DNA of 64,000 bases from the NCBI GenBank assembly GCA_035543015.1, contig DATKKG010000063.1, positions 4,798-68,797 of the forward strand. The letters run 5' to 3'. Origin of the DNA: Conexivisphaerales archaeon. GTDB lineage: Archaea; Thermoproteota; Nitrososphaeria; Conexivisphaerales; DTJL01. Shown piece after piece: positions 3,120-55,806 of the stretch (position 1 is its first letter; every line of letters begins with the position of its first letter). The position numbers were made by a program, and so were the translations under genes. The notes beneath the pieces were generated by a model. It saw only the letters and a list, made by a program, of their open reading frames with translations, was not told the DNA's origin and made no database searches.

Positions 3120-4484
3120 GTGGGAAAGCTCTTCGGAACCAATGGGATCAGAGGCATTCCCGGGAAGGACTTGACCGACGATCTTGTGGTCAAGGTGGGC
3201 AGGGCTGTCGGCATCAAGCTCGGAAAGGAGATAGTGGTGGGGTGCGACGGCCGGACCAGCAGCCCGAGGTTGTCTCACCTCATCGCGACGGCGATCAACT
3301 CGGTGGGTTCCAACGTCCATTACGTGGGGCTGGCCCCGACGCCCGCCATCCAGCTGTACGCGGGCAGCGGCAAGTTCGACGGAGCGGTCATCATCACGGC
3401 TTCTCACAACCCCCCAGAGTTCAACGGGATCAAGGTGATGGGCCCCAACGGCGTGGAGATCCCCAGGGGAGTCGAGACCGAAATCGAGGCCATCGTGGAC
3501 TCAGGCTCGAAGCCCGTCGAGGGAGGCATCGGCTCCTTCAAGGAAGAAGGCGGGGTCATGGACCTGTACGTGAGGAAGATCATTGCGAAGGTCGACGCGG
3601 CAGCGATAAGGAAGCGAGCCTTCACGATAGTCGTGGACGCAGGGAACGGAGCTCAGAGCGTTTCCGCGCCCAAGCTCTTTGGAGAGCTGGGGTGCAAGGT
3701 CATCCCCGTCTTCTGCGAAGTGGACGGCCGGTTCCCCGGCAGGGGATCAGAGCCCGTCGCCGAGAAGCTCACCAAACTCGTGGAGACGGTAAGGAAGGAG
3801 AAGGCCGACCTGGGTGTGGCGTTCGACGGCGACGGTGACCGCGTGGTGTTCTGCGACGAGAACGGGAAGCTGTACACGGGAGACAGGTCCGGAGCGCTCC
3901 TCCTGGACTTCATCCTCTCCAAGAAGAGGGGACAGAAGGTGGTCACAACCGTAGCCACCTCCAACATCGTGGAGCATGTGGTCACGGAACATGGCTCCAA
4001 GCTCATCAAGATCAGGGTGGGCAGCGTGGACGTCACGGAAAGGATGCTGAAGGAGGGGGCCATCGCCGGGCTCGAAGAGAACGGGGGCTTCTTCTACCTC
4101 CCGCATCAGCCCGTGAGAGACGGGGGGATGACGTCCTCCCTGATGCTGGACGCCCTGGCGCACTGGGGAGTGTCGATGTCGGAGGCCATGCGGCGGCTGC
4201 CGCTCTACCACCAGCGCAAGAGCAAGCTCGAATGCCCCAACCCTCTGAAGAAGGCCGTCCTGGAAGAGGTCAAGAGGGCCGCGGACGGGGAACTGGACCT
4301 TACGGACGGTGTCAGGATCGACTTCGACGATGGCTCCTGGGTCATAGTGCGGCCCAGCGGAACGGAGCCGCTCGTCAGGGTCTTCTCGGAGTCCACCGAC
4401 GAAGAGAAGGCGGAGGAGCTCTTCGAAAGATACTTCACGTTGGTCGAAGGCAGCATAAAAAAACTGCAGAAAAGCGCGACTTAA
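3120..4484 (+). CDS. Phosphohexomutase (phosphoglucosamine mutase / phosphomannomutase family)
   Basis: Has the N-terminal GTNGIRG, the active-site TASHNPPEFNGIK, and the GVAFDGDGDR metal loop. GTG start. Confidence 0.85.
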   Translation: MGKLFGTNGIRGIPGKDLTDDLVVKVGRAVGIKLGKEIVVGCDGRTSSPRLSHLIATAINSVGSNVHYVGLAPTPAIQLYAGSGKFDGAVIITASHNPPEFNGIKVMGPNGVEIPRGVETEIEAIVDSGSKPVEGGIGSFKEEGGVMDLYVRKIIAKVDAAAIRKRAFTIVVDAGNGAQSVSAPKLFGELGCKVIPVFCEVDGRFPGRGSEPVAEKLTKLVETVRKEKADLGVAFDGDGDRVVFCDENGKLYTGDRSGALLLDFILSKKRGQKVVTTVATSNIVEHVVTEHGSKLIKIRVGSVDVTERMLKEGAIAGLEENGGFFYLPHQPVRDGGMTSSLMLDALAHWGVSMSEAMRRLPLYHQRKSKLECPNPLKKAVLEEVKRAADGELDLTDGVRIDFDDGSWVIVRPSGTEPLVRVFSESTDEEKAEELFERYFTLVEGSIKKLQKSAT

Positions 4485-4803: not shown

Positions 4804-5766
4804 CTACCTTAGGTGAACCCAGCCTTCGGCGGCGATGACCTTGTGGCGGCGAGTTCCGGGGGACGCGTATTCCACCCCCGCACCGCCGTCCGCGGCATGG
4901 CCGAAGGGATAGAGCTCCGAGACCATGGTCTCGGCGATGACGGACGCCCGCCTCAGCTTGGCGGGGGGGACGCAGAGGACGGCTTCGTACTCCTCCCCTC
5001 CGTGAAGGACGAGGTCTAGCGGATCGAGGCCAGCCGCGGAGACGGCCTTAACGAACGCCCGGTCAGCGGGGAGCCGTTCCATGACGAAGCGTTTCCGGCT
5101 CTGCCTGGAGAGCTCGTTCAGTGTAACTGCCAGGCCGTCGCTCGAGTCCATTGAGGCGTGAACGCACCCTCCGTCGATGAGGGAACGACATAGACCATTC
5201 TTCGGGGAGGGCTCGTAGACGCTGGCGAGGGACGATGAGAGCAGGGACCTTGGAAGGGGCGTCCCCTCCAGCAGGTGCCTGAGCCCCAGGGCTGTCCTGC
5301 CGAACGGCCCGGTGGCTACGAGGACGTCGCCGACCTGGGCGCCGCTCCGCCGCACCATCCTGTCAGATTGGCCCACCATCGCGACGTCGACGACGAAGTC
5401 GAGGGATTCGTTGACGTCACCTCCGACGATTGGGACGCCGTATTCCACGCTGGCGTCGCGGAGGCCGGAGGCGATCTGCTTCATCTCGGTCTCCAGGGCC
5501 ATCTTTCGAGGGACGCCCAGCGAGACCATGAAACCCAGGGCCTCGGCGCCCTTGCAGAGCAGGTCCGAGAGGCACGCCACGACTGCCTTTCTGGAGGCCT
5601 GCCTGAGCGTCATCCCCGGGGGAAGATCCGTCGAGCCGACGAACATGTCGGTCTTCAGGACAAGGTAGCCCTTCCCTCGTTTAATGAAGGAGACGTCATC
5701 GAGGAGGTCGGTTTTCTGGAAGCTGAAAGTCTCGCGGATGAGCTCTATTATGTCCAGCTCGTTCAG
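4804..5766 (-). CDS. thiL: Thiamine-monophosphate kinase (AIR synthase-related fold). The 5' end uses a non-canonical start.
   Basis: Motifs GGDVNES and VATGPFGRTALGL. The reading frame stays open upstream of the track ATG (5646) and encodes the conserved N-terminus NELDIIELIRETF..LLDDVSFI..LVLKTDMFV. That stretch contains no ATG, GTG or TTG. Confidence 0.7.
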   Translation of the reverse strand: MNELDIIELIRETFSFQKTDLLDDVSFIKRGKGYLVLKTDMFVGSTDLPPGMTLRQASRKAVVACLSDLLCKGAEALGFMVSLGVPRKMALETEMKQIASGLRDASVEYGVPIVGGDVNESLDFVVDVAMVGQSDRMVRRSGAQVGDVLVATGPFGRTALGLRHLLEGTPLPRSLLSSSLASVYEPSPKNGLCRSLIDGGCVHASMDSSDGLAVTLNELSRQSRKRFVMERLPADRAFVKAVSAAGLDPLDLVLHGGEEYEAVLCVPPAKLRRASVIAETMVSELYPFGHAADGGAGVEYASPGTRRHKVIAAEGWVHLR

Positions 5767-7070
5767 GCCGAGTCGCCCTCCGGCTTCATCGCGTTGGTGA
5801 GGATCAGCTTCGCTTCATCGACCGCGGCGTCCAGGTCTTCCGGGTTCCGGACCTCCACTGATATCCTCACCACGTCCTCGGTCCTCGAAGGCCTGTACAG
5901 GATCCAGCCGTGCCTGCCGTCGATCCTGACGCCGTCCAGCGCAATGGAGCCCGGATGGCTCGCCCTGATGGCGTCGATGGCCTTGGAGAAGGCTGACCGG
6001 TCGGCTCCGAACTTGATCCTCCGGAGGGCGTACTTGGGGATCTCCTGCATGACGTCGTTGAGAGACGTCCCTCTCAGGGTCCTCACGAGGAAGGCCGCCG
6101 CCAGGAGGCCATCCCTGCAGTAGCTGAACTCTGGGAAGATCACCCCTCCGCTGCTTCCCTCCCCTCCCAGCGAGGAACCGGTCTCGAGCATGGTCTTAAC
6201 CACGTTCGCCTCTCCCACCGGGGCCAGGATGACCTTGCCGCCCTTCCTGTGGACGATGTCGAAGACGGAGCTGGACGTGTCGACGCTCATGGTCACCGTG
6301 TCTCCCTCCTTCACGTTCTGCAGCGCCATAAGAGAGAACGTGTCGTCGGGTTGCAGCTTCGCGCCCCCGGCGTCCATGATGACGAGCCTGTCGCCGTCGC
6401 CGTCGAAAGCGAAGCCGACGTCGCAGCCTTGGCTCATCACTTCGTCAGAAAGCTCACCAAGTGGGTCTTCGGTAGGATCGATCGCCCGGTTGAACGCCCC
6501 AGCTCTCATGTTGATGGCGTGTACTTCGGCGCCCATCAGCTCGAAGAGCTGGGTCGCCGACTTGGTTGCGCTGCCGCCGCCCAGGTCCAGGGCGACCTTC
6601 ACCCCGGTGCCCGAGTCTGGGCCCACCTTCCTGAGGATGTCGTCGTAGTAGGGGGAGGATGCGGGCTGGACCCTGCCGGGCGCAAGCGACGGATGGGAGT
6701 GCCGTATGGCGGCGAGTTCCTCCTCCCCCGTGCCCGTCCCGGCCTTGGTGATGAACTTCAGTCCGTTCCATTCAGGGGGGTTATGGGAAGCGGTGACCAT
6801 TATGGCGCCGTCGACGCCGGAGACCCTGACGTACCTGAATATCTCCGGAGTCGTCACCAGGCCCAGACGGTGAACCACGCACCCGGAGCCGACCAGGGCG
6901 TCAACGACGGCTTTCAGGAGATGTTCGGACGACGGCCGCGTATCGCAGCCCACGGCGATGTCTCCCCCGTCGGAATAGGCTGCGAACCTCGAGGCCCAGC
7001 TCTTGACGTACGGGATGGTCAGGTCCGAGCCATATATGCCCCGAAGCCCAGAAATGGATTCTATGACCAA
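5763..7070 (-). CDS. Phosphohexomutase paralogue (phosphoglucosamine/phosphomanno/phosphoglucomutase family)
   Basis: Motifs GLRGIYG, TASHNPPEWNGLK and GFAFDGDGDR. Confidence 0.85.
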   Translation of the reverse strand: MVIESISGLRGIYGSDLTIPYVKSWASRFAAYSDGGDIAVGCDTRPSSEHLLKAVVDALVGSGCVVHRLGLVTTPEIFRYVRVSGVDGAIMVTASHNPPEWNGLKFITKAGTGTGEEELAAIRHSHPSLAPGRVQPASSPYYDDILRKVGPDSGTGVKVALDLGGGSATKSATQLFELMGAEVHAINMRAGAFNRAIDPTEDPLGELSDEVMSQGCDVGFAFDGDGDRLVIMDAGGAKLQPDDTFSLMALQNVKEGDTVTMSVDTSSSVFDIVHRKGGKVILAPVGEANVVKTMLETGSSLGGEGSSGGVIFPEFSYCRDGLLAAAFLVRTLRGTSLNDVMQEIPKYALRRIKFGADRSAFSKAIDAIRASHPGSIALDGVRIDGRHGWILYRPSRTEDVVRISVEVRNPEDLDAAVDEAKLILTNAMKPEGDSA

Positions 7071-7159: not shown

Positions 7160-7169
7160 AGTTATTATC
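7160..7169 (+). promoter_or_regulatory. TATA-like box for tRNA-Thr
   Basis: AGTTATTATC, centred about 28 nt upstream of position 7193. Confidence 0.5.
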
Positions 7170-7192
7170 CCGACCTTGAGATGCTCAACCGA

Positions 7193-7332
7193 GCCCCAGT
7201 AGCTCAGCGGTGGAGCAAACCATCCCGTGGAGCTCACTCGCCTCGTATCCCGACCGTCCGTGCAAGATCGAACGGGAGAGCGATAGGTCGGGGGTCCAAA
7301 GGAACACAGGTCTGGAATTCCCCCCTGGGGCT
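7193..7332 (+). tRNA. tRNA-Thr(CGU) interrupted by three introns (7219-7237, 7248-7278, 7301-7318)
   Basis: The acceptor halves GCCCCAG and CTGGGGC are 139 nt apart. Each insert is bounded by a bulge-helix-bulge motif. The spliced product folds into a 72-nt cloverleaf with anticodon loop CUCGUAA. Confidence 0.75.
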
Positions 7333-7396
7333 CTCAAAGAATCGCCTGCCTAGCCCTTGCGACTGGAGGGGTGTTTCGGGACTCAGGGCGGCACAA

Positions 7397-7407
7397 AGCT
7401 TTAATCC
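7397..7407 (+). promoter_or_regulatory. TATA-like box for tRNA-Leu(GAG)
   Basis: AGCTTTAATCC, centred about 29 nt upstream of position 7431. Confidence 0.5.
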
Positions 7408-7430
7408 TCACGTATTGGGTTTTCGGCTGG

Positions 7431-7518
7431 GCGGGGGTCGCCCAGCCTGGTCAAAGGCGTAGGCCTGAGGCGCCTATCCAGTAGTGGTTCGTGGGTTCGA
7501 ATCCCACCCCCCGCACCA
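7431..7518 (+). tRNA. tRNA-Leu(GAG), long variable arm, CCA encoded
   Basis: GCGGGGG UC GCCC..GGC G UAGGC CUGAGGC GCCUA UCCAGUAGUGGUUC GUGGG UUCGAAU CCCAC CCCCCGC A CCA. Confidence 0.9.
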
Positions 7519-15429: not shown

Positions 15430-16887
15430 ATGGAATCAGGAGCAACGTATATCTATCATCAGCGGTCTCAAGCGTTGGTGTTCGATTTGTCCGTAAGAGA
15501 CACAGTCAATGTCGACTATAGCAAGTACGACTTCAAAGACCCCGAAACCTCGGTGTTCACGACGGACCGGGGACTGGACAAGGACAAGGTCATCAAGATT
15601 TCGAAATACAAGAACGAACCCGAGTGGATGACCGAGTTCCGGGTGCGTGCCTTCGAGACCTTCAAGAAGAAGCCGATTCCCACCTGGGGCGCGAACCTTT
15701 CCAACATAGACTTCGACAACATCAGATACTACATCAAGCCCACCGAAAAGAACGTCGACAGCTGGGAGGCGCTCCCTGAGGCAATAAAGAGCACCTTCGA
15801 AAGGCTGGGCGTGCCGGAGGCGGAGAGGAAGTTCCTGGCTGGTGTGGGTGCGCAATACGAATCCGAGGTCGTCTACCACAACATGCGAAAAGACTTGGCT
15901 AAGCAGGGAGTTGTCTTCTCGGACATGGACACGGCCTTGAAGGAGTACCCGGAGATCGTGAAGAAGTACTTCGGTACCGTCGTGCCCATCAACGACAACA
16001 CCTTCTCGGCTCTGAACAGCGCCGTCTGGAGCGGAGGCTCGTTCATCTACGTCCCGGAAGGGGTCAAGGTCGAGCAGCCTCTGCATGCCTACTTCAGGAT
16101 CAACGCTGCCAACATGGGACAGTTCGAAAGGACTCTCATCATAGCGGAGCCCTACAGCGACATCCACTACATTGAGGGATGCACTGCTCCGGTCTACACT
16201 TCCGACTCACTTCACGCCGCCGTGGTCGAGCTAATCGCGAAGAAGGGCGCCCACATAAGGTACACCACGATACAGAACTGGTCGAAGGACGTCTACAACC
16301 TGGTGACCAAGAGGGCGTTCGCCTACGAGGACGCCAGGGTCGAGTGGATCGACGGAAACCTGGGCAGCAAAGTCACCATGAAGTATCCCTCCATCTACCT
16401 CCTCGGGAGGGGCGCAAGGGCGGAAGTCCTCTCCGTCGCCATGGCTGGGAGCGGACAGCACATCGATGCGGGGTCGAAGATCCTCCACCTGGCGCCTGAC
16501 ACGAGCTCGAGGATAACCTCGAAGTCGGTCTCCAAGGACGGAGGTAGGACCACCTATCGCGGCCAGCTCCTTGTAGCCAAGGGGGCCACAGGAGTCAAGA
16601 GCAGCGTCAGATGCGACGCCCTGATCCTTGACGACAAGTCGATGTCTGACACTTATCCATACAACATGGTGAGCGAAAGCGACACCGTGCTTACGCATGA
16701 GGCGACGGTCGGCAAGATCGGCGAGGACCAGCTCTTCTACCTGATGAGCAGGGGGCTGACGGAGAACGAAGCGCTGAACGCCGTGGTCATGGGGTTCATG
16801 GAGCCGTTCACGAAGGAGCTGCCCATGGTCTACGCGATCGAGCTCAACCGGCTCATCAGCCTCGAAATGATCAACTCTGTGGGATAG
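15430..16887 (+). CDS. sufB: Fe-S cluster assembly protein SufB
   Basis: Motifs [40 protein letters not shown]. Confidence 0.9.
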
Positions 16888-16906
16888 AAGCCGCCCCGTC
16901 TGGCAT

Positions 16907-18172
16907 TTGTCCGACAATTCTCATATAGAAGCGGGGATCGCTGAGAATCCTATGTCGGAGATGCTCCTTAGCCGGGTCAGGCGGCTTTCGAAGGACCTGG
17001 GAGAGCCGGAAGCCCTGGCTTCGGCAAGGGCGGAGAGCCTCGCGCTCTACGACAGCCTCCCCTACGAAAGGAACGTCCTCTTCTCGAAGAACTTCGAGAA
17101 GCTGCCGGGGGACCCCAACGAGTTCGCCCCCAGGGAAGGAGGGAAGCTTCCAGCCGACGTCCCCTACTCCGTCGCCGTCCTTGGGTCGAAGAGCCTCGTG
17201 GGGTCGCTCCCGAAGGGTGTGAGCTTCCACGACGGAACCAAAGAGGGCATGCCCCTGCTTTCCACACCCATCTCCGGAGACGAAGACAAGATGTTCTACC
17301 TCAACGCGGCCTTCAGGGACCATTCGAACAAGTTCATCGTGGCCCCGGGTGAAGCGGTCAGGGAGCCGATAGTCCGTCTTGGCGTGTCCCCGCCGGGAAG
17401 GAACGGAACGTTCCGCTCGACCGAAATAGACGTAGGCGAAGCGTCCAGCTCCATCTTCATCGACAGGATAGCCGACTCGCAGGACAACGGAACGGAGCCT
17501 GCGCTCCTGAGCGACCTCGTGGAGGTCCGCCTGAGGCCCAACGCGACGTTGACTTTCGTCACGCTGTCGACGGGGACCAGGGAGAGGATCATCCACAACA
17601 CCAGGTTCGTGCTCGAAGACGGCGCCAGGCTCACCTACGTCACCTGGTACGCGGCGTCGCCGTACGTGCGGGCGCACTCCTACGTTGTGCTCAGGGGCGA
17701 GGGAGGGGAGGCGAACCTGTACTGGGGCGGCTTCCCGAAGGAGTCATCCCGCTACGATTACATGGCGTTGGTGGAACACCTGGGGCGCTCGACGAAGGGT
17801 TTCGTCCTGCAGAGGGGACTGGTGAAAGGACAGTCGAGGATGCTGCTGAAGGGCCTCATGACCATCAGGCATTCCGCTGTCAACGCGGACAGCCACCTTA
17901 GCCAGCACGCCCTCCTGCTCACCAGAGACTCGTTCGCCAACGCCATCCCCGGACTGGAGATAGAGACGAACGAGCTCAAGGCAAAGCACGCGGCGTCCGT
18001 GTCCCAGCCCGATGAGGACCAGCTCTTCTACCTTATGAGCCGCGGCCTGACGAAGGAGGAGTCCCTGATGGAGATCGCGGGCGGCTACCTCAACCCGCTG
18101 GCGGTGAACATACCGGATCAGGCGGCCAGGGAGGCCTTCGAGCTCGAGATCGGAAAAGCCCTCAAGGGCTAG
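16907..18172 (+). CDS. sufD: Fe-S cluster assembly protein SufD
   Basis: SufB/D-family C-terminus ([24 protein letters not shown]), positioned after sufB. Confidence 0.8.
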   Translation: MSDNSHIEAGIAENPMSEMLLSRVRRLSKDLGEPEALASARAESLALYDSLPYERNVLFSKNFEKLPGDPNEFAPREGGKLPADVPYSVAVLGSKSLVGSLPKGVSFHDGTKEGMPLLSTPISGDEDKMFYLNAAFRDHSNKFIVAPGEAVREPIVRLGVSPPGRNGTFRSTEIDVGEASSSIFIDRIADSQDNGTEPALLSDLVEVRLRPNATLTFVTLSTGTRERIIHNTRFVLEDGARLTYVTWYAASPYVRAHSYVVLRGEGGEANLYWGGFPKESSRYDYMALVEHLGRSTKGFVLQRGLVKGQSRMLLKGLMTIRHSAVNADSHLSQHALLLTRDSFANAIPGLEIETNELKAKHAASVSQPDEDQLFYLMSRGLTKEESLMEIAGGYLNPLAVNIPDQAAREAFELEIGKALKG

Positions 18173-18213
18173 GGGCGACTCCCCCCTTTAGCGCGTCCCC
18201 GACGGGCTCCAAA

Positions 18214-18244
18214 CTGCACAGCATTAAAATAATCCGTCGTGCAG
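18214..18244 (+). promoter_or_regulatory. Internal promoter for sufS-sufU: an A/T box flanked by a 6-bp inverted repeat
   Basis: CTGCAC agCATTAAAATAATccgtc GTGCAG. The box centre is about 50 nt upstream of the TTG at 18277. Confidence 0.4.
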
Positions 18245-18276
18245 TAAAGCCCGATTACCTTCGGAAAAGATGCGAA

Positions 18277-19512
18277 TTGGAGACTCAGACACTCGACGTC
18301 GACAGGATCATACGGGACTTCCCCATCCTCGACCGCGCCATCGAGGGCAAGAAGCTGATCTACCTTGACAACGCCGCCACTTCCCAGAAGCCCCGCGCGG
18401 TCATCAGGGCCCTGGACGAGTTCTATTCGACCTACAACTCGAACATACACAGGGGGGTCTACCGCATCGCCGAGAAGGCGACGGCGGAGTACGAGAACTC
18501 CCGAGAGAAGGTGGCTAAGTTCATCTCGGCGCCGTCGGCCGAGGAGATAGTGTTCACGCGGAACACTACGGAGTCGCTGAACCTCGTCGCGCAGTCCTGG
18601 GGCAGGAAGTTCGTGTCTAAGGGCGACAGGATCGTCCTTACCCTGCTCGAGCATCACAGCAACATCGTTCCGTGGCAGCAGCTGGCCCTGGAGAAGAAGG
18701 CGAGGGTCGAATATGCGGTGGTCGACGAGGACGGCAACCTCGACCTCGAGGACTTCAAGGAGAAGGCCGTGGGTGCCAGGGTCGTGGCTTTCACCCACGT
18801 CTCCAACGTCTTCGGAACGATCAACCCGGCCAAGGAGATGGCCAGGATCGCAAGGAAGGAGGGAGCCCTGGTCGTCGTGGACGGCGCCCAGGCCGTCCCC
18901 CACATGCCCGTGGACGTATCCGAGATAGGCTGCGACTTCTACGCGTTCTCGGCGCACAAGATGCTTGGGCCCACAGGGGTGGGGGTGCTCTACGGGAAGA
19001 AGGAGCGCCTGGAGGAGACGCCGCCGTTCCTGACTGGCGGGGACATGATCAGCCAGGTGCACCTCTCCGGCGCCTCCTGGAACGAGCTGCCGTGGAAGTT
19101 CGAGGCGGGGACGCCAAACATAGCCGACGTCATCGCGTACGGCCCGGCCTTGGACTACCTGTCCTCCATAGGGATGGAGGCTGTCAGGCGGCACGAGATG
19201 CGCCTGACCGCGCGAGCCCTGGACGCGCTCAGGGGAGTCGAAGGAGTGAAGGTCTATGGGCCGAAGGGCGCAGACGGGCGCGGAGGCGTAATACCTTTCA
19301 ACGTCAAGGAGATCCATCCGCATGACGTCGCGGCCGTCCTGGACGGGATGGGGGTGGCGGTGCGCTCAGGCTACCACTGCGCCGAGCCCCTCCATGAATG
19401 GTTCGGGATACCGAGCTCGGTCAGGGCGAGCTTCTACATCTACAACAGGGAGAGCGACATAGACGCGCTGGTGGCTGGCGTTAGAAAGGCTAGCGAGGTG
19501 TTCGGAAGTTGA
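18277..19512 (+). CDS. sufS: Cysteine desulfurase SufS (class V aminotransferase)
   Basis: Motifs YLDNAATSQKP, AFSAHKMLGPTGVGVLYG and RSGYHCAEP. Confidence 0.85.
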   Translation: METQTLDVDRIIRDFPILDRAIEGKKLIYLDNAATSQKPRAVIRALDEFYSTYNSNIHRGVYRIAEKATAEYENSREKVAKFISAPSAEEIVFTRNTTESLNLVAQSWGRKFVSKGDRIVLTLLEHHSNIVPWQQLALEKKARVEYAVVDEDGNLDLEDFKEKAVGARVVAFTHVSNVFGTINPAKEMARIARKEGALVVVDGAQAVPHMPVDVSEIGCDFYAFSAHKMLGPTGVGVLYGKKERLEETPPFLTGGDMISQVHLSGASWNELPWKFEAGTPNIADVIAYGPALDYLSSIGMEAVRRHEMRLTARALDALRGVEGVKVYGPKGADGRGGVIPFNVKEIHPHDVAAVLDGMGVAVRSGYHCAEPLHEWFGIPSSVRASFYIYNRESDIDALVAGVRKASEVFGS

Positions 19513-19910
19513 GCGACGAGATATACAAGGAGATCATAATGGACCACTACAAGAACCCCCGCAACTTCGGGAAGATCGAGAAGCCCGACTTTTCGGCCGA
19601 GGACAGCAACCCCCTCTGCGGCGACCATGTGGAGATGGCCGTCAAGATCGAGGACGGGAAGGTGGCCGACGTCAAGTTCATCGGCCGGGGCTGCGCCATC
19701 AGCATGTCGGCCGCCTCCATAATCACCGAACTCATTCAGGGGATGTCGATAGAGGACCTCCGCAAGTTCGACAAGGAGCAGCTCCTCGAGGCAATGGGCA
19801 ACCCCGACCTGGGCCCCGTGAGGGTGAAGTGCGCACTCCTGCCGCTCAAGACCCTGAAGTTGGGCCTCTACACCTACCTGTCGAAGACTGACGATTCCGC
19901 CGGGAAGTAG
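19509..19910 (+). CDS. sufU: SUF-system NifU/IscU-like scaffold SufU
   Basis: Motifs DHYKNPRNFG, NPLCGD, GRGCAIS and RVKCALL. It overlaps sufS by 4 nt. Confidence 0.8.
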   Translation: MSDEIYKEIIMDHYKNPRNFGKIEKPDFSAEDSNPLCGDHVEMAVKIEDGKVADVKFIGRGCAISMSAASIITELIQGMSIEDLRKFDKEQLLEAMGNPDLGPVRVKCALLPLKTLKLGLYTYLSKTDDSAGK

Positions 19911-37165: not shown

Positions 37166-37906
37166 ATGACGGGACCGTTCCGGTTCCTGGTGGAGCTGAC
37201 CAGGAGCCTGGAGGAGAACGGCCAGCGGCTTCTGGACGGGGACATCCTGGTCCTCTCCGGCAAGTACCTCGCCATGGCCGAAGGAAGGTACGTCGACCTC
37301 GGCCGCGTCGTCCCGCTTGGCGACGCGAGGGAGTGCGCTTCGAGGTACGGCATGAGCCCGGCGCTGGCGGAGACGGTGCTCCGGGAGTCCGACATGGTGC
37401 TGAAGGGACTTCGTGGTTTCCTGCTCACCGTCAAGGACGGCTTCTTCGCTCCGAACGCCGGGGTGGACAAGTCGAACGTGTGGAAGGGCTGGGCGATCCT
37501 TCATCCCAGCGACGGGTCGGCCCTTTCGGCGAGGATCAGGAGGGAGATGCTTGTGGCCTTCGGGAAGCGAGTGGGGGTCGTGGTCACGGACAGCCGGCTT
37601 CAGCCCCTGAGGAGGGGCACGGTGGGGACATCGATAGGCTTCTCGGGCTTCGACGGCGTGGCCGACGACAGGGGAAGGAAGGACCTGTTCGGCAACAGGC
37701 TCAAGGTCACGAGGAGGGCCGTGGCTGACGACCTCTCCAGCGCGGCGGAGCTGCTCATGGGGGAGTCCGACGAAAGCGTCCCGGTCGTGATAGCCCGGGA
37801 CACGGGGATAGCGCTCTCAGACGAGGACAGCTTCGATGTCTCCGTCCCGGCCGACGAATGCATCTTCGTCAGAGGGCTTTCGGGCTTCGTGCCCGAGAAG
37901 CCCTAG
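37166..37906 (+). CDS. cofE: Coenzyme F420:L-glutamate ligase
   Basis: Motifs DGDILVLSGKYLAMAEGR, NAGVDKSN and VVVTDS. I prefer the ATG at 37166, preceded by AGGAGG. Confidence 0.7.
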   Translation: MTGPFRFLVELTRSLEENGQRLLDGDILVLSGKYLAMAEGRYVDLGRVVPLGDARECASRYGMSPALAETVLRESDMVLKGLRGFLLTVKDGFFAPNAGVDKSNVWKGWAILHPSDGSALSARIRREMLVAFGKRVGVVVTDSRLQPLRRGTVGTSIGFSGFDGVADDRGRKDLFGNRLKVTRRAVADDLSSAAELLMGESDESVPVVIARDTGIALSDEDSFDVSVPADECIFVRGLSGFVPEKP

Positions 37907-38598
37907 GTCTGAGCCTGCTTGGCGCCGATGTGCTGCTTGAACTTCAAGGCGTCGGCGTACATCGCTACCGAGTGGAACGCGAAATAGGCCTTCTTGGAGC
38001 CGGAGGAGGCAGCCCTCTCCTCAACCCTATCAAGGTCTTCCGCCGCGAAGTGATACATGTTGTGTTTCCCCAGCCCGAAGAGGCGGGTGTAGAGCACGTC
38101 GTCCCCGGCGAGGGGAGATGACCGGCTGAGGTCGGTCACCTGGATGATGCCGACGGAGCGCAGAAGCGAAGGTGCCGAGGGGGCATCCATGTGGCGCATC
38201 TCCCATGCGAGCCGGACGGATGCCTCCCTCGTCCTGTCGACCAGGCGCCCCAGCAGACTCTCCGAGACCTCTCCGGGATCGAACGTCGAAGGGGTCTGGA
38301 GGACGAGAATCATGGAGTCCAGGGTGTCGCAGACCCCCGTCATGTAATCGATCAGATGGTCGAGCCTTTCCCTGTCTCCGCGACGGAGGGCTTCGTTGAC
38401 CTCCCTGCTGCACTTCACCGAGAACTCGAAGCCGGGAGGGACGACCTCCCGCCACCTGGCGACCGTGCCAAGGGGGACGTGACTATAGTATGTGGAGTTG
38501 ACCTCCACGAAGTCGAAGAGCCTGGAATACGCCTTCAGCTTGTCGGCCGTTACGATCGGGAAATACTGCCACCCGCCGGTGCCGATGCGGAACTCCAC
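37903..38598 (-). CDS. DUF72 (UPF0759) family protein
   Basis: IGTGGWQYFP start motif. TIM-barrel-sized protein (231 aa). Confidence 0.65.
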   Translation of the reverse strand: MEFRIGTGGWQYFPIVTADKLKAYSRLFDFVEVNSTYYSHVPLGTVARWREVVPPGFEFSVKCSREVNEALRRGDRERLDHLIDYMTGVCDTLDSMILVLQTPSTFDPGEVSESLLGRLVDRTREASVRLAWEMRHMDAPSAPSLLRSVGIIQVTDLSRSSPLAGDDVLYTRLFGLGKHNMYHFAAEDLDRVEERAASSGSKKAYFAFHSVAMYADALKFKQHIGAKQAQT

Positions 38599-38635
38599 GA
38601 TATGTTAAGAAGCCTCTAACGGTATTTAACGGGCG

Positions 38636-39454
38636 ATGCCTCTCCGAATGGGCACCTGCGGCTGGAGCTATGACGAATGGCTGGGAGTCTTCTATCCCAG
38701 CAAGGACACCCCCAAGCTCTCCTACTATTCGAAGGTGTTCAAGACCGCCGAAGTCGACAGCACCTTCTACGACTACCCCAACGAAAAGGTGGTCTTCGGG
38801 TGGTCCAAGTACAGCCCCCTCGACTTTCAGTTCAGCCTGAAGGTTCCCCAGCTCATCACGCACAAGAAGCGTCTCAGCCTACGATTGGGAGTGGAGTCCG
38901 ACCTGGATAGGTTCCTCAACCTGCTGAAGCCGCTCTCCTCGCTCAACAAGATCGGGGTCCTGCTCGTCCAGCTCCCTCCGAGCCTTTCCTCCGACCTGGA
39001 GCTCCTCGAGTCGTTCCTGAGGGTGCTCCCCGCCGACGTCTTCAACTTCGCCATCGAGTTCAGGCATGAATCGTGGTGGAACGAGGAGACGTGGAAGCTG
39101 CTCAGGAAGTACAGGGTCGCCAACACCACGGTGGACGAGCCGCTGCTGCCGCCCGAAATCGTCAGGACGGCGGACTTCACGTACGTGAGGTGGCACGGCC
39201 TGGGAAAGCGGGTCTGGTACGACTACCGTTACTCCAAGGAGCAGATATCGGAGTGGGTGCCGAAGCTGAAGGAGGCCTTGGCCAGCTCGAAGGAGGTGTA
39301 CGGGTACTGGAACAACCACTTCCACGGCTACGCCGTGCTGAACGGCCTCGAGGCGATCGAGCTGATGGGGATGATGACGCCGGAACAGAAGGAGGCGCTC
39401 GCTTCGGTCACGGCGAGGGTGGACGGCAGGCAGAAGGGCATCCTGGATTACTAG
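38636..39454 (+). CDS. DUF72 (UPF0759) family protein, paralogue
   Basis: Motifs MGTCGWSYDEWLGVFYP, FEFRHESW and VYGYWNNH. Confidence 0.7.
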   Translation: MPLRMGTCGWSYDEWLGVFYPSKDTPKLSYYSKVFKTAEVDSTFYDYPNEKVVFGWSKYSPLDFQFSLKVPQLITHKKRLSLRLGVESDLDRFLNLLKPLSSLNKIGVLLVQLPPSLSSDLELLESFLRVLPADVFNFAIEFRHESWWNEETWKLLRKYRVANTTVDEPLLPPEIVRTADFTYVRWHGLGKRVWYDYRYSKEQISEWVPKLKEALASSKEVYGYWNNHFHGYAVLNGLEAIELMGMMTPEQKEALASVTARVDGRQKGILDY

Positions 39455-49147: not shown

Positions 49148-49523
49148 CGACCAGGTCCCACACCACGGGGTTCCCCCGGTAGTCGTACACCGCGATGCAT
49201 TCCGGGCCGACGAAGGGATACGAGACTATCATCATCACAGAGCCGTAGACGTGAAGGAGGTCCTGAAGGGACGGCCTGTTGGAGCCCGACGGGTGAGAGT
49301 GAGCCGTGCCCACTATCGAGGCGTCGACGGGCACCTGGTACGGGTTGAAGATGGATGCCGAGCGGGCGCCCTGCATGAACGGGGCGAAGACCACCTGGTG
49401 GATCAGCATCACGTCCTCCTTCCTCTTGGCCCGGAGCAGGACCAGCATTTCGTTGGGGTACTGGTCTTTGGAGAAGGCCAGAAGGGAGTCGGCCAGGGTC
49501 CTGGTGAGCTGTACGCGAGTCAC
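49134..49523 (-). CDS. JAB1/MPN/Mov34 (JAMM) metalloprotease
   Basis: An E residue in the EMLVLL context and the AHSHPSGSNRPSLQD JAMM motif. Confidence 0.8.
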   Translation of the reverse strand: MTRVQLTRTLADSLLAFSKDQYPNEMLVLLRAKRKEDVMLIHQVVFAPFMQGARSASIFNPYQVPVDASIVGTAHSHPSGSNRPSLQDLLHVYGSVMMIVSYPFVGPECIAVYDYRGNPVVWDLVDDEE

Positions 49524-50125
49524 TACGGCGTTATCCCCATCATCCTGTAGGCGTTTGCCAGGTTGGCCTTGGCCCTGGACCGGACTTCGTCGTAGTAGTT
49601 GTGACCCTCCGAGTCTATGATCACCGTCAGCGGCCCAAAGTCCTCCACCTCCAGTATCCAGAGCGCCTCAGGGGACCCCAGGTCCAGCCATTCGACGCCC
49701 TTGACCTTCTTTATCGACTTGGCGGCCAGGGCTCCCGCGCCCCCGGTGTAGATCGTGTAGGCGGTCCCAAGCTTCCTGCAGGCTTCGGCCGTCTTCGCCC
49801 CCATTCCGCCCTTGCCGATCACCAGCTTGGCGCCGGTCTTCTCGAGGAAGTCGGCCTCGTACATCTCGATCCTGGCGGACGTCGTCGGGCCCGCCGAGAT
49901 CACCTCCCAGCCGTCTCCCTTCTTCCTGACCACCGGGCCCATGTGATAGACCGCGAGCCCGTGGAAGTCGACGGGGAGGCTCTCGCCCTTGGCGAGCACC
50001 TCGAGCGCGCGCCTGTGGGCGGCGTCCCTTGCGGTGATCACCGTGCCCGTCAGGTAGACGATGTCGCCCGTGCGGAGCTGCCTCGGCTCGTCGTTCAGCG
50101 GCGTGGTGAACCTGTACTCTACCAT
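49523..50125 (-). CDS. Class I (Fe-S) fumarate/tartrate hydro-lyase, beta subunit
   Basis: Motifs LTGTVITARDAAH and GKGGMG. Confidence 0.8.
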   Translation of the reverse strand: MVEYRFTTPLNDEPRQLRTGDIVYLTGTVITARDAAHRRALEVLAKGESLPVDFHGLAVYHMGPVVRKKGDGWEVISAGPTTSARIEMYEADFLEKTGAKLVIGKGGMGAKTAEACRKLGTAYTIYTGGAGALAAKSIKKVKGVEWLDLGSPEALWILEVEDFGPLTVIIDSEGHNYYDEVRSRAKANLANAYRMMGITP

Positions 50126-50126
50126 C

Positions 50127-51035
50127 TCAGGCTCCCCCCTTGTTCAGGAACTGGTGGGTGAGGAACTCGACGCGGCCTCCGGGGTACACCCTCATCGTGC
50201 TCCTCCTGTCCTCCCAGCAGGCCGTCGCCACGCCCACCGCGAAGGAAGCTGGGTGGCGGTTGACGGCGTCGATGTGGACGTCCAGCGCCGTCGCCAGGCC
50301 CCCCACTCCGTGCGGGCCCCATCCCAGCATGTTGATCGCCTCGAGGAGCGACGTCTCAATCTTGGAGAGCTCGGGGTCGGCGTTGCGCTGGCCGATCTCG
50401 CGCTGGAGGGACTTCTTGGCCAGCTTCATGGCGATGTCGGCCGTCGGCCCAAGGCCGATGCCGACGATGACCGGTGGGCAGGGCTTGGGACCCTGCTCGA
50501 AGATGTCGTCGAGGACGATCTTGTAGACGCCTTTCATCCCTTCCGCGGGCGGTATGACCTTGGCCATGCTGGGCGACTCGCTGCCCCCGCCCTTGAGGAC
50601 CACCGTCACGTCGGCTACCTCGGAGCCAGGGACGATCTCCCACTCTATCCAGGGTATCCTGTCCGCGGTGTTGTTCCCGGAGTTCTTCCCGGTTATGATG
50701 TTGACCGAGTTCGGCCTTAGCGGGGCTTCGGCGGTGGCCTTGACGGTGGCGTTTCTCAGCGACCTCTCCAGCAGCCCGAGATAGGGGAATCGGTCCCCGG
50801 CCTTCACGTAGAATATCACAGTGCCGGTGTCCTGGCAGGAGGGCCTTCCCTCCGCCTCGGCTATCTCGAGGTTCTTCAGCATGGAGCCGATGACCTTCTT
50901 CGGAAGCTCAGTGGGTTCCCTGTCCTGGGCCTTTTTGAGGGCCTCCTTGACGTCGGCTGGGAGATAGATGGCTGCCGTCGTTATCAATTTGACGGCTGCC
51001 GCGGAGATCTGCTCCTCGACGCTCTGCGTGCTCAT
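50127..51035 (-). CDS. Class I (Fe-S) fumarate/tartrate hydro-lyase, alpha subunit
   Basis: Motifs PSCQDTGTVIFYV and GIGLGPTAD. Confidence 0.8.
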   Translation of the reverse strand: MSTQSVEEQISAAAVKLITTAAIYLPADVKEALKKAQDREPTELPKKVIGSMLKNLEIAEAEGRPSCQDTGTVIFYVKAGDRFPYLGLLERSLRNATVKATAEAPLRPNSVNIITGKNSGNNTADRIPWIEWEIVPGSEVADVTVVLKGGGSESPSMAKVIPPAEGMKGVYKIVLDDIFEQGPKPCPPVIVGIGLGPTADIAMKLAKKSLQREIGQRNADPELSKIETSLLEAINMLGWGPHGVGGLATALDVHIDAVNRHPASFAVGVATACWEDRRSTMRVYPGGRVEFLTHQFLNKGGA

Positions 51036-54390: not shown

Positions 54391-55806
54391 GTGAAACGGA
54401 GAGTGACAGCCCCCTTCAGGGTTGAGAAGGACTACCTCGGTCCGGTGAACGTGCCTTCCGACGCCTACTACGGGGTCCAGACGGCGAGGGCGGTCGAGAA
54501 CTTCAAGATCAGCGGAATCCGGCCCCACCCTCTGTACGTCCGCACCTCGGCCTTGGTGAAGTGGGCCGCGGCCGTGGGCAACATGAAGGCCGGGACGCTG
54601 GACAGACGGAAGGGAGAAGCCATCTGTCGGGCGGCTGAGGAGGTCTACTCCGGGAGACTGCTGGACCAGTTCGTCGTCGACGTGTTCCAGGCCGGGGCGG
54701 GGACGTCCCACAACATGAACGTCAACGAAGTCATAGCCAACCGGGCCATCGAGCTCCTCGGAGGCGAGAAGGGCCAATACTCCGTAGTCCATCCCAACGA
54801 CGACGTGAACATGGGGCAGTCCACCAACGACTTCGTGCCCACCGTCATCAGGGTCACGTTGCTCCTCATGATGAGGGAGCTCCAGGCAGAGCTGGAGTCG
54901 CTCGAGTCCTCCCTCGGTGACCTTGCGACCAAGTACGGCCCGGTGGTCAAGCCCGGACGCACACACCTCATGGATGCGGCGCCAATCAGGTACGGCCAGG
55001 TCTTCGACGGATGGAGGAGGACCATTTCGAAGGACGGCGACAGGCTGAAGGAGGCGGGCGAGATGCTGACGGAGCTCAACCTCGGCGCCTCGGCCGTCGG
55101 CACCGGGGTCAATGCGGAGCCGGCGTACGTCGACGAGGCCATCCGATTCCTTTCCGAGAAGACCGGGTTCAGGTTCAGGAGCCCGGCCTCGTTCGTGGAC
55201 GTGACGCACTCCATGGCCGACATGCAGTGGGCGATGTCCTCCCTGAAGGCCCTGGCGCTGGACGTTTCGAAGATCTGCAACGACCTCCGTCTGATGAATT
55301 CGGGCCCGGTCACCGGCTTCGGAGACATCACCCTCCCCGCGGTCCAGCCCGGGTCCTCGATCATGCCTGGGAAGGTGAACCCGGTGATAGCCGAATGCAT
55401 GAACATGATCTGCTTCCACGTGATGGGGAGCGAGAGGGCCGTGGAGGAGGCCGCGCACATGGGCCAGATGGAGCTCAACGTCATGATGCCCCTCATCGCC
55501 TATGAGTCGACGATGTCCCTCGAGATCATGAGGAACGGGCTCAGGATGCTCAGAGAGAGGCTTCTCTCCGGCATCGTGATCGACGTGGAGAGGGAGAGGC
55601 GCCTCGTGGAAGCGAGCTCCGGCATCGCCCTTGCCCTCAACCCGTATCTCGGATTCGACAGGACCGCGGAGATCGTCAAGGAGGCCATGAAGAGGGGGGT
55701 CACCGTCCGGCAGGTCATAAGCGAGAAGAAGCTGATGACCGACGAAGAGCTGGACAAGGTCCTGGACCCGTACAGGATCACGCAGCGCGGAATCGTCAAG
55801 GAATAG
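54391..55806 (+). CDS. aspA: Aspartate ammonia-lyase (class II fumarase/aspartase superfamily)
   Basis: The signature GSSIMPGKVNPV and the N-terminal DAYYGVQTARAVENFKISG favour aspartase over FumC. Confidence 0.75.
   Translation: MKRRVTAPFRVEKDYLGPVNVPSDAYYGVQTARAVENFKISGIRPHPLYVRTSALVKWAAAVGNMKAGTLDRRKGEAICRAAEEVYSGRLLDQFVVDVFQAGAGTSHNMNVNEVIANRAIELLGGEKGQYSVVHPNDDVNMGQSTNDFVPTVIRVTLLLMMRELQAELESLESSLGDLATKYGPVVKPGRTHLMDAAPIRYGQVFDGWRRTISKDGDRLKEAGEMLTELNLGASAVGTGVNAEPAYVDEAIRFLSEKTGFRFRSPASFVDVTHSMADMQWAMSSLKALALDVSKICNDLRLMNSGPVTGFGDITLPAVQPGSSIMPGKVNPVIAECMNMICFHVMGSERAVEEAAHMGQMELNVMMPLIAYESTMSLEIMRNGLRMLRERLLSGIVIDVERERRLVEASSGIALALNPYLGFDRTAEIVKEAMKRGVTVRQVISEKKLMTDEELDKVLDPYRITQRGIVKE

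Follow-up and report, generated by a model that had tools for sequence, protein, structure and literature searches.

The DNA analysed here, referred to as the window, is a stretch of 64 kb with a G+C content of 62%. Its gene content is archaeal, with PCNA, aIF2-alpha, a thermosome, AglB/STT3, XPD, MetRS, an F420 ligase, the SUF system and glycine cleavage proteins. At 7193-7332 on the forward strand, the two halves of a tRNA acceptor stem, GCCCCAG (7193-7199) and CTGGGGC (7325-7331), enclose a region that can be divided into four exons and three introns. Exon 1 (7193-7218, +) covers tRNA positions 1-27, namely the acceptor 5' strand, the D arm, A26 and A27. It is followed by intron 1 (7219-7237, +; 19 nt) at the non-canonical position 27/28. 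Exon 2 (7238-7247, +) has only 10 nt, corresponds to positions 28-37 and carries the anticodon CGU at 7244-7246, and intron 2 (7248-7278, +; 31 nt) interrupts the gene at the canonical position 37/38. Exon 3 (7279-7300, +) gives positions 38-59, which include the anticodon stem 3' strand, the variable loop AGGUC, the T stem 5' strand and UCCAAA. The non-canonical intron 3 (7301-7318, +; 18 nt) lies in the T-loop at position 59/60, and exon 4 (7319-7332, +) supplies positions 60-73, that is, U60, the T stem and acceptor 3' strands and the discriminator U73. A TATA-like box, AGTTATTATCC (7160-7170, +), is centred about 28 nt upstream of G1, with a purine-rich, BRE-like stretch before it. The four exons follow one another in order at a single locus, on one strand inside 140 nt, which rules out a split or permuted tRNA gene. 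If a multiple-intron tRNA gene is taken as one with at least two bulge-helix-bulge (BHB) introns of which at least one is non-canonical, the introns at 27/28, 37/38 and 59/60 place this locus in that class.

Excision of the three introns yields the 72-mer GCCCCAGUAGCUCAGCGGUGGAGCAAUCGCCUCGUAAGCGAUAGGUCGGGGGUCCAAAUCCCCCCUGGGGCU. Its MFE structure is a perfect cloverleaf at -33.5 kcal/mol, in which 21/21 stem pairs are Watson-Crick. Acceptor, D, anticodon and T stems of 7, 4, 5 and 5 bp are obtained with the spliced product only, and the anticodon loop has 7 nt with U33. The coordinates and sequences given for this gene in a first-pass annotation all proved correct when the locus was read again. 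Its call of an interrupted tRNA-Thr(CGU) gene agrees with ARAGORN, which reports the spliced product as tRNA-Thr(cgt), and with the comparative evidence described below. G1-C72, C2-G71 and U73 are common to the product and to all the uninterrupted Thr(CGU) homologues recovered. C3-G70 is common to the product and the homologues L072, L073, L076 and L079, while L070 and L074 have G3-C70. Judged by the anticodon CGU and an acceptor end common to archaeal tRNA-Thr, the product is a tRNA-Thr isoacceptor.

In archaeal precursors, the splice sites are located in two 3-nt bulges (PMC7714728). Each of the three introns has such a motif, in which a central helix of 4 bp separates the two bulges and the cuts are symmetric. 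The first motif, BHB1, has its outer helix at 7209-7212/7239-7242, its central helix at 7213-7216/7232-7235 and its bulges at 7217-7219 and 7236-7238. For BHB2 the outer helix is the anticodon stem itself (7238-7241/7280-7283), to which A27-U43 is added once intron 1 is gone; the central helix lies at 7242-7245/7273-7276 and the bulges at 7246-7248 and 7277-7279. For BHB3 the outer helix is the T stem (7290-7294/7320-7324), the central helix lies at 7295-7298/7313-7316 and the bulges at 7299-7301 and 7317-7319. Cleavage of a BHB takes place after the second nucleotide of the bulge. The rule is self-consistent here, because its application at all three motifs yields a tRNA.

Is the gene visible to commonly used tRNA finders? 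On the unspliced locus, nothing was found by ARAGORN with or without its option for anticodon-loop introns, nor by the Rfam tRNA model (RF00005) at the gathering threshold or at E<=10. Neither finder models non-canonical introns, and therefore the gene is missed. As both are blind to it, tRNA-Thr(CGU) would appear to be absent from genomes of this lineage unless a BHB-aware tool is used.

Note that three freely chosen excisions allow many degrees of freedom, so that a cloverleaf might be assembled by chance, and that an open reading frame of 93 aa (7181-7462) does span the locus, so that the region might instead be protein-coding. We therefore enumerated all combinations of up to three excisions in the 140-nt precursor that give products of 70-77 nt, where a 4-bp helix had to adjoin each 3-nt bulge on its 5' side, the outer helix had to measure at least 2 bp and the cut had to fall after bulge nucleotide 2. 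This gave 20 candidate introns and 29 products, and only one of the 29 was called a tRNA by ARAGORN, the very solution proposed in the first-pass annotation. For decoys, the real acceptor halves were kept and the interior was replaced by 1000 random window segments or by 1000 shuffles. None of the 2000 decoys was positive (0/14,539 products called tRNA). The three-excision cloverleaf is not a chance product. The open reading frame has no Pfam match, and intron 2 is 31, 34, 34, 38, 47 and 48 nt long in the orthologs described next. These differences are not multiples of three and break the frame, which excludes the overlapping reading frame. Chance assembly or a coding region, to which we assign a vanishingly small probability, is thus already refuted by the enumeration, the decoys and the intron 2 lengths.

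To find orthologs, genomes and metagenomes were searched with the exons. Among the GTDB species genomes, only three contain the 24-nt 5' exon, and all of them are Nitrososphaerota or Nitrososphaerales MAGs. A genome scan with the 3' exons added one Conexivisphaerales MAG. In metagenomes the pattern GGTGGAGCAA-N(0-30)-TCGCCTCGTA gave 65 matches, among which only L013, L031, L034, L041 and L062 are orthologs. Most of the matches, among them a family whose gap is 11 nt, are unrelated coding sequence and were rejected. The metagenome scan added a divergent form, L041 (identical to L031); when genomes were scanned for its type of 3' exon, there was no match. Six distinct versions were compared, those of the window, L001, L002, L003, L034 and L041.

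The introns lie at identical three sites in all six versions. Exon identity per pair is 69-72 of 72-73 positions (95-100%), whereas intron identity is only 42-71%, a difference with Fisher p values from 1e-7 to 1e-14. The intron lengths vary as well, with 12-20 nt for intron 1, 31-48 nt for intron 2 and 16-18 nt for intron 3. With such short lengths and an unconserved sequence in the orthologs, a C/D-box sRNA in intron 2 was rejected. Exon 1 is invariant in the window, L001, L002 and L003; L034 has C13U, by which a G-U pair is kept, and L041 has one additional U in the D-loop. Exon 2 is invariant in all six versions. Exon 3 is invariant in five genomes, with UUCGAA in L041 instead of UCCAAA. 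Exon 4 is again invariant in 6/6, and the sequences diverge directly after U73. Does the high exon identity simply reflect recent ancestry? The syntenic neighbour proteins (PGM/PMM, a TMEM175-like protein, a molybdopterin oxidoreductase and an AIRS-domain protein) are 63-81% identical and the flanking DNA is about 69-74% identical across the orthologs. Because proteins and DNA around the gene are far more diverged, the exon identity is explained not by recent ancestry but by purifying selection that acts on precisely the four exons proposed.

The BHB motifs are also kept. Over the six genomes, all 12 central-helix pairs are standard, in agreement with the motif structure and the cleavage rule that the first-pass annotation had proposed. 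There are one-sided changes, G-C to G-U in the intron 1 helix of L001 and L003, and U-G to U-A in the intron 2 helix of L001. In intron 3, two pairs differ on both their exon and their intron side in a compensatory way, C55-G and A57-U in the window clade vs U55-A and G57-C in L041, so that the central helix is UCCA/UGGA in the former and UUCG/CGAA in the latter. The helix does covary, although with n=6 sequences the statistical weight is modest. The inner helix of intron 3 varies in sequence while its stem is kept in four of the six orthologs (L001, L003, L034 and L041).

Folding gives a more differentiated picture of the three motifs. BHB1 is the unconstrained MFE structure of the isolated arm in 6/6 orthologs, with a BHL form in L041, where the intron has 12 nt. 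BHB3 appears in the isolated-arm MFE structure in 5/6 orthologs and, for the window, in that of the whole precursor too. BHB2 is feasible in all orthologs, at 1.6-8 kcal/mol above the isolated-arm MFE. The window has the value of 8 kcal/mol, and the motif is suboptimal there because a competing hairpin, UCCCG/CGGGA, forms. In the full precursor, the conformer with both BHB1 and BHB3 is 4.9 kcal/mol above the MFE, and conformers containing BHB2 are 10-16 kcal/mol above it while intron 1 is present. BHB1 and BHB2 share 7239-7242 and cannot coexist. A direct repeat of 7 nt, GTGGAGC, was also noticed, with one copy in exon 1 (7210-7216) and the other in intron 1 (7227-7233). It arises because the central helix GAGC/GCUC of BHB1 is palindromic (GAGCUC). 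In the precursor MFE structure the intron copy pairs with the D-stem 5' strand and so competes with BHB1.

Uninterrupted homologues give an independent view of the junctions. In 8 genomes from Thermoplasmata, Aenigmatarchaeota and unclassified archaea, no intron interrupts the 37/38 junction TCGCCTCGTA|AGCGATAGGTCGGGGG. Five of the eight genes are fully uninterrupted and called Thr(cgt) by ARAGORN; they are identical to the product at 62-66 of 72 positions and score 69-72 bits with the Rfam tRNA model, whose cut-off is 29. At none of the three junctions are these genes interrupted; they have GAGC-G-A-UCGCC, GUA-AGCGAU and T-loops of the UUCAAAU type there, and genes without intron 1 show no break at the 27/28 junction, GAGC-R-A|UCGCC. 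Two other homologues carry a single intron. In L079, a Hadarchaeota MAG whose acceptor stem is the same as in the window gene, the sole intron is a canonical one of 12 nt, and nothing is inserted at 27/28 or 59/60. In L077, an Aenigmatarchaeota MAG, Thr(CGU) has a single 39-nt BHB intron at 59/60, and thus the 59/60 site recurs. Two further Thr(CGU) genes, L071 and L075, have apparent interruptions in the D-loop and/or the T-loop, for which the strict BHB-rule enumerator gave no solution. Taken together, the enumeration, the orthologs and the uninterrupted homologues uphold the three intron positions that had been proposed at first.

Might the gene be real with at least one boundary placed differently, for example by a shifted cut that gives the T-loop UCCAAUU, or with an RNA that is corrected later, for example from C55 to U? 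Worked by hand, removal of 18 nt at other offsets in 7295-7319 also leaves a 7-nt T-loop. C-to-U editing of tRNA exists in Archaea, where CDAT8 acts on position 8 in Methanopyrus, and this makes editing of position 55 conceivable. As to the boundaries, however, only the proposed ones both fit the BHB rule and are ARAGORN-positive. The homologue T-loops UUCAAAU, UUCGAAU and UCCGAAU are in register with UCCAAAU, and the 27/28 junction alone restores the A27-U43 and U28-A42 pairs. We consider a shifted boundary or a corrected RNA very improbable.

Another possibility is that the locus is a decaying or silent pseudogene, with ACG codons read by an uninterrupted Thr(CGU) elsewhere or by wobble of Thr(UGU). 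Position 55 of the product is C where U is near-universal (PMC7912444), the computed BHB2 is suboptimal, and since the locus is known from 64 kb of sequence alone, a second Thr(CGU) gene could lie elsewhere in the genome. However, no uninterrupted copy of the product sequence was found in the metagenome scan with zero gap allowed at junction 1 or in the genome scan with zero gap allowed at junction 3, and the zero-gap scan of junction 2 revealed none in any Nitrososphaerota genome. Decay is also at odds with exons that stay 95-100% identical in six genomes while the neighbour proteins are at 63-81% and the introns have diverged, indels included. Moreover, the promoter is conserved and compensatory changes keep the BHB helix. 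A pseudogene is therefore very unlikely. With a probability of roughly 93%, we read 7193-7332 (+) as a functional Nitrososphaerota tRNA-Thr(CGU) gene with three protein-spliced BHB introns at 27/28, 37/38 and 59/60, whose product would be spliced, ligated and aminoacylated as tRNA-Thr(CGU).

A point of concern, absent from the first-pass annotation, is the C at position 55 of the product. The predicted T-loop is UCCAAAU (7295-7300 and 7319). Among the elbow nucleotides G18, G19, U54, U55, C56, A58 and C61, all are present but U55. Of the modified sites in tRNA, U55/Psi55 has been described as the one with the most universal conservation (PMC7912444), and C55 might impair the tRNA elbow. It lowers the certainty on full function, not on membership in the tRNA family. 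C55 is found in the window, L001, L002, L003 and L034, while L041 has U55 in the T-loop UUCGAAU, with matching changes in the intron strand. The uninterrupted Thr(CGU) of L073, an unclassified archaeal MAG, also has C55 and still reaches 70 bits with the Rfam tRNA model. Then why would C55 be retained? Position 55 pairs and covaries with a nucleotide of the intron in BHB3, and one may therefore speculate that the splicing motif has shaped the mature T-loop. In that scenario, which we regard as rather unlikely, C55 would be a derived state kept in five diverged genomes and fixed together with the intron, the splicing motif overriding the constraint on U55/Psi55. If it is true, there would be a working elongator tRNA without Psi55, or a tRNA that needs C-to-U correction. 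Exon-intron covariation that reaches the T-loop offers a natural case for how far splicing motifs constrain the mature tRNA.

How would such a precursor be processed? The TATA/BRE promoter of the gene itself, some 28 nt upstream, would drive transcription of a precursor of about 140 nt, and a splicing endonuclease would cut at six sites, in every 3-nt bulge after nucleotide 2. In Thaumarchaeota, the other name of Nitrososphaerota, the endonuclease is an (alpha-beta)2 EndA with a Crenarchaea-specific loop that gives it broad specificity (PMC4090602, PMC5829648). Judging from this literature on the phylum, the enzyme here is probably of the same type and would accept non-canonical positions and relaxed motifs. 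The order of the cuts may not be free. BHB1 would borrow the D-stem 3' strand (7213-7216) together with nucleotides 29-32, and because BHB2 needs 29-32 as well, the precursor would have to refold between cuts. A single conformer could serve for the excision of introns 1 and 3, with intron 2 to follow after formation of the anticodon stem. Order-dependent splicing has been described for closely spaced introns (tRNAscan-SE 2.0 paper, PMC8450103). An RtcB-type ligase would then join the four exons into the 72-nt tRNA. After ligation CCA would presumably be added, since it is not encoded after U73. In a Pfam survey of the window, neither EndA nor RtcB was found among its 58 ORFs.

The layout with three introns is already known in Nitrososphaerota, and the present gene is another well-conserved example. 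Non-canonical introns, up to three per gene, are recorded in Thaumarchaeota (PMC8450103), and tRNAscan-SE 2.0 includes a Thaumarchaeota-specific BHB model and counts 107 non-canonical introns there (PMC8450103, PMC4033280). Three multi-intron tRNAs are known from the aigarchaeon Caldiarchaeum subterraneum (PMC3082918). The present gene resembles the Thaumarchaeota cases in its phylum-level lineage, in the combination of canonical, D-arm and T-arm BHB introns in one gene, in having the documented maximum of three introns and in the (alpha-beta)2 EndA presumed here. It differs from them in coming from uncultured Nitrososphaerota, Nitrososphaerales and Conexivisphaerales MAGs and in the C55 of its T-loop. 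In the literature, no description was found of a Thr(CGU) gene with introns at 27/28, 37/38 and 59/60 together. With this gene, the range of the three-intron layout comes to include uncultured lineages of Nitrososphaerota, some of whose MAGs are labelled Conexivisphaerales, and the current understanding of archaeal tRNA splicing stays as it is.

Multi-intron tRNA genes are most abundant in Thermoproteales, where Sugahara et al. (2007/2008) described them (PMC8450103, PMC4033280); Pyrobaculum calidifontis, for example, has 71 introns in 46 tRNA genes (PMC4033280, PMC8450103). The first-pass annotation had placed multi-intron tRNAs mainly in Thermoproteales and in a few other lineages. It is the latter part that fits here, as the named orthologs are all Nitrososphaerota; these orthologs and the archaeal gene content also point to Nitrososphaerota as the lineage of the window. 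Thermoproteales genes also have up to three BHB, HBh' or BHL introns each, and where introns are crowded one is removed before the next BHB forms (PMC8450103), a likeness to introns 1 and 2 of the present gene. However, they belong to another phylum, and similar introns recur there across many tRNA species, which has been taken to indicate recent transposition (PMC4033280). In contrast to this transposition-like spread, the present gene has three orthologous introns, which have been inherited stably in genomes that are deeply diverged, with proteins about 63-81% identical.

An experimental case concerns the crenarchaeon Aeropyrum pernix, in which pre-tRNA-Thr(CGU) and pre-tRNA-Thr(UGU) are spliced by the (alpha-beta)2 APE-EndA (PMC3241643). 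This enzyme alone cuts canonical and non-canonical D-loop BHB introns, and mini-helices suffice as substrates (PMC3241643). Both systems concern Thr tRNAs, one of those in A. pernix with a canonical and the other with a D-loop BHB intron. There, however, each gene has one intron, while the present gene has three, including one in the T-loop, and its splicing is inferred. The layout of one intron per arm is also seen in one eukaryotic nuclear tRNA gene, but that resemblance is convergent and implies no relatedness.

The surroundings of the gene are conserved too. The block AACAGTTATTATCC around the TATA-like box is invariant in four genomes, and an A/T-rich box also precedes each of the three uncontested tRNA genes in the window, at -33..-24. 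The Thr gene has an inverted repeat, TTGAG-ATG-CTCAA (7176-7188), between its TATA-like box and +1. L002 and L003 retain this repeat, L001 and L034 retain it in part, and it could simply be sequence close to the promoter. About 100 nt downstream lies tRNA-Leu(GAG) (7431-7518, +) with its own TATA-like box. The Thr-Leu tandem recurs in L001 (Leu at 2332-2416), L002 (350-434) and L003 (4224-4308), where the flanking order of PGM/PMM, tRNAs, TMEM175-like protein and molybdopterin oxidoreductase is conserved as well. Upstream of the tRNA pair, two phosphoglucomutase/phosphomannomutase paralogs (3120-4484, +; 5763-7070, -) flank an AIRS-domain gene, and they are about 31% identical to each other's orthologs. 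A search of the window for further hidden tRNAs, using sub-threshold Rfam matches and D-arm/T-arm motifs, gave candidates at 1132, 22551, 31581 and 37077, of which the last three appear to be coding sequence. Elsewhere in the window, genes for SufB, SufD, a SufS-like aminotransferase and a NifU-like scaffold form a SUF gene cluster for iron-sulfur assembly (15430-19910), two DUF72 genes are adjacent (37903-39454), and fumarases of both classes are encoded, class I at 49523-51035 and class II at 54391-55806.
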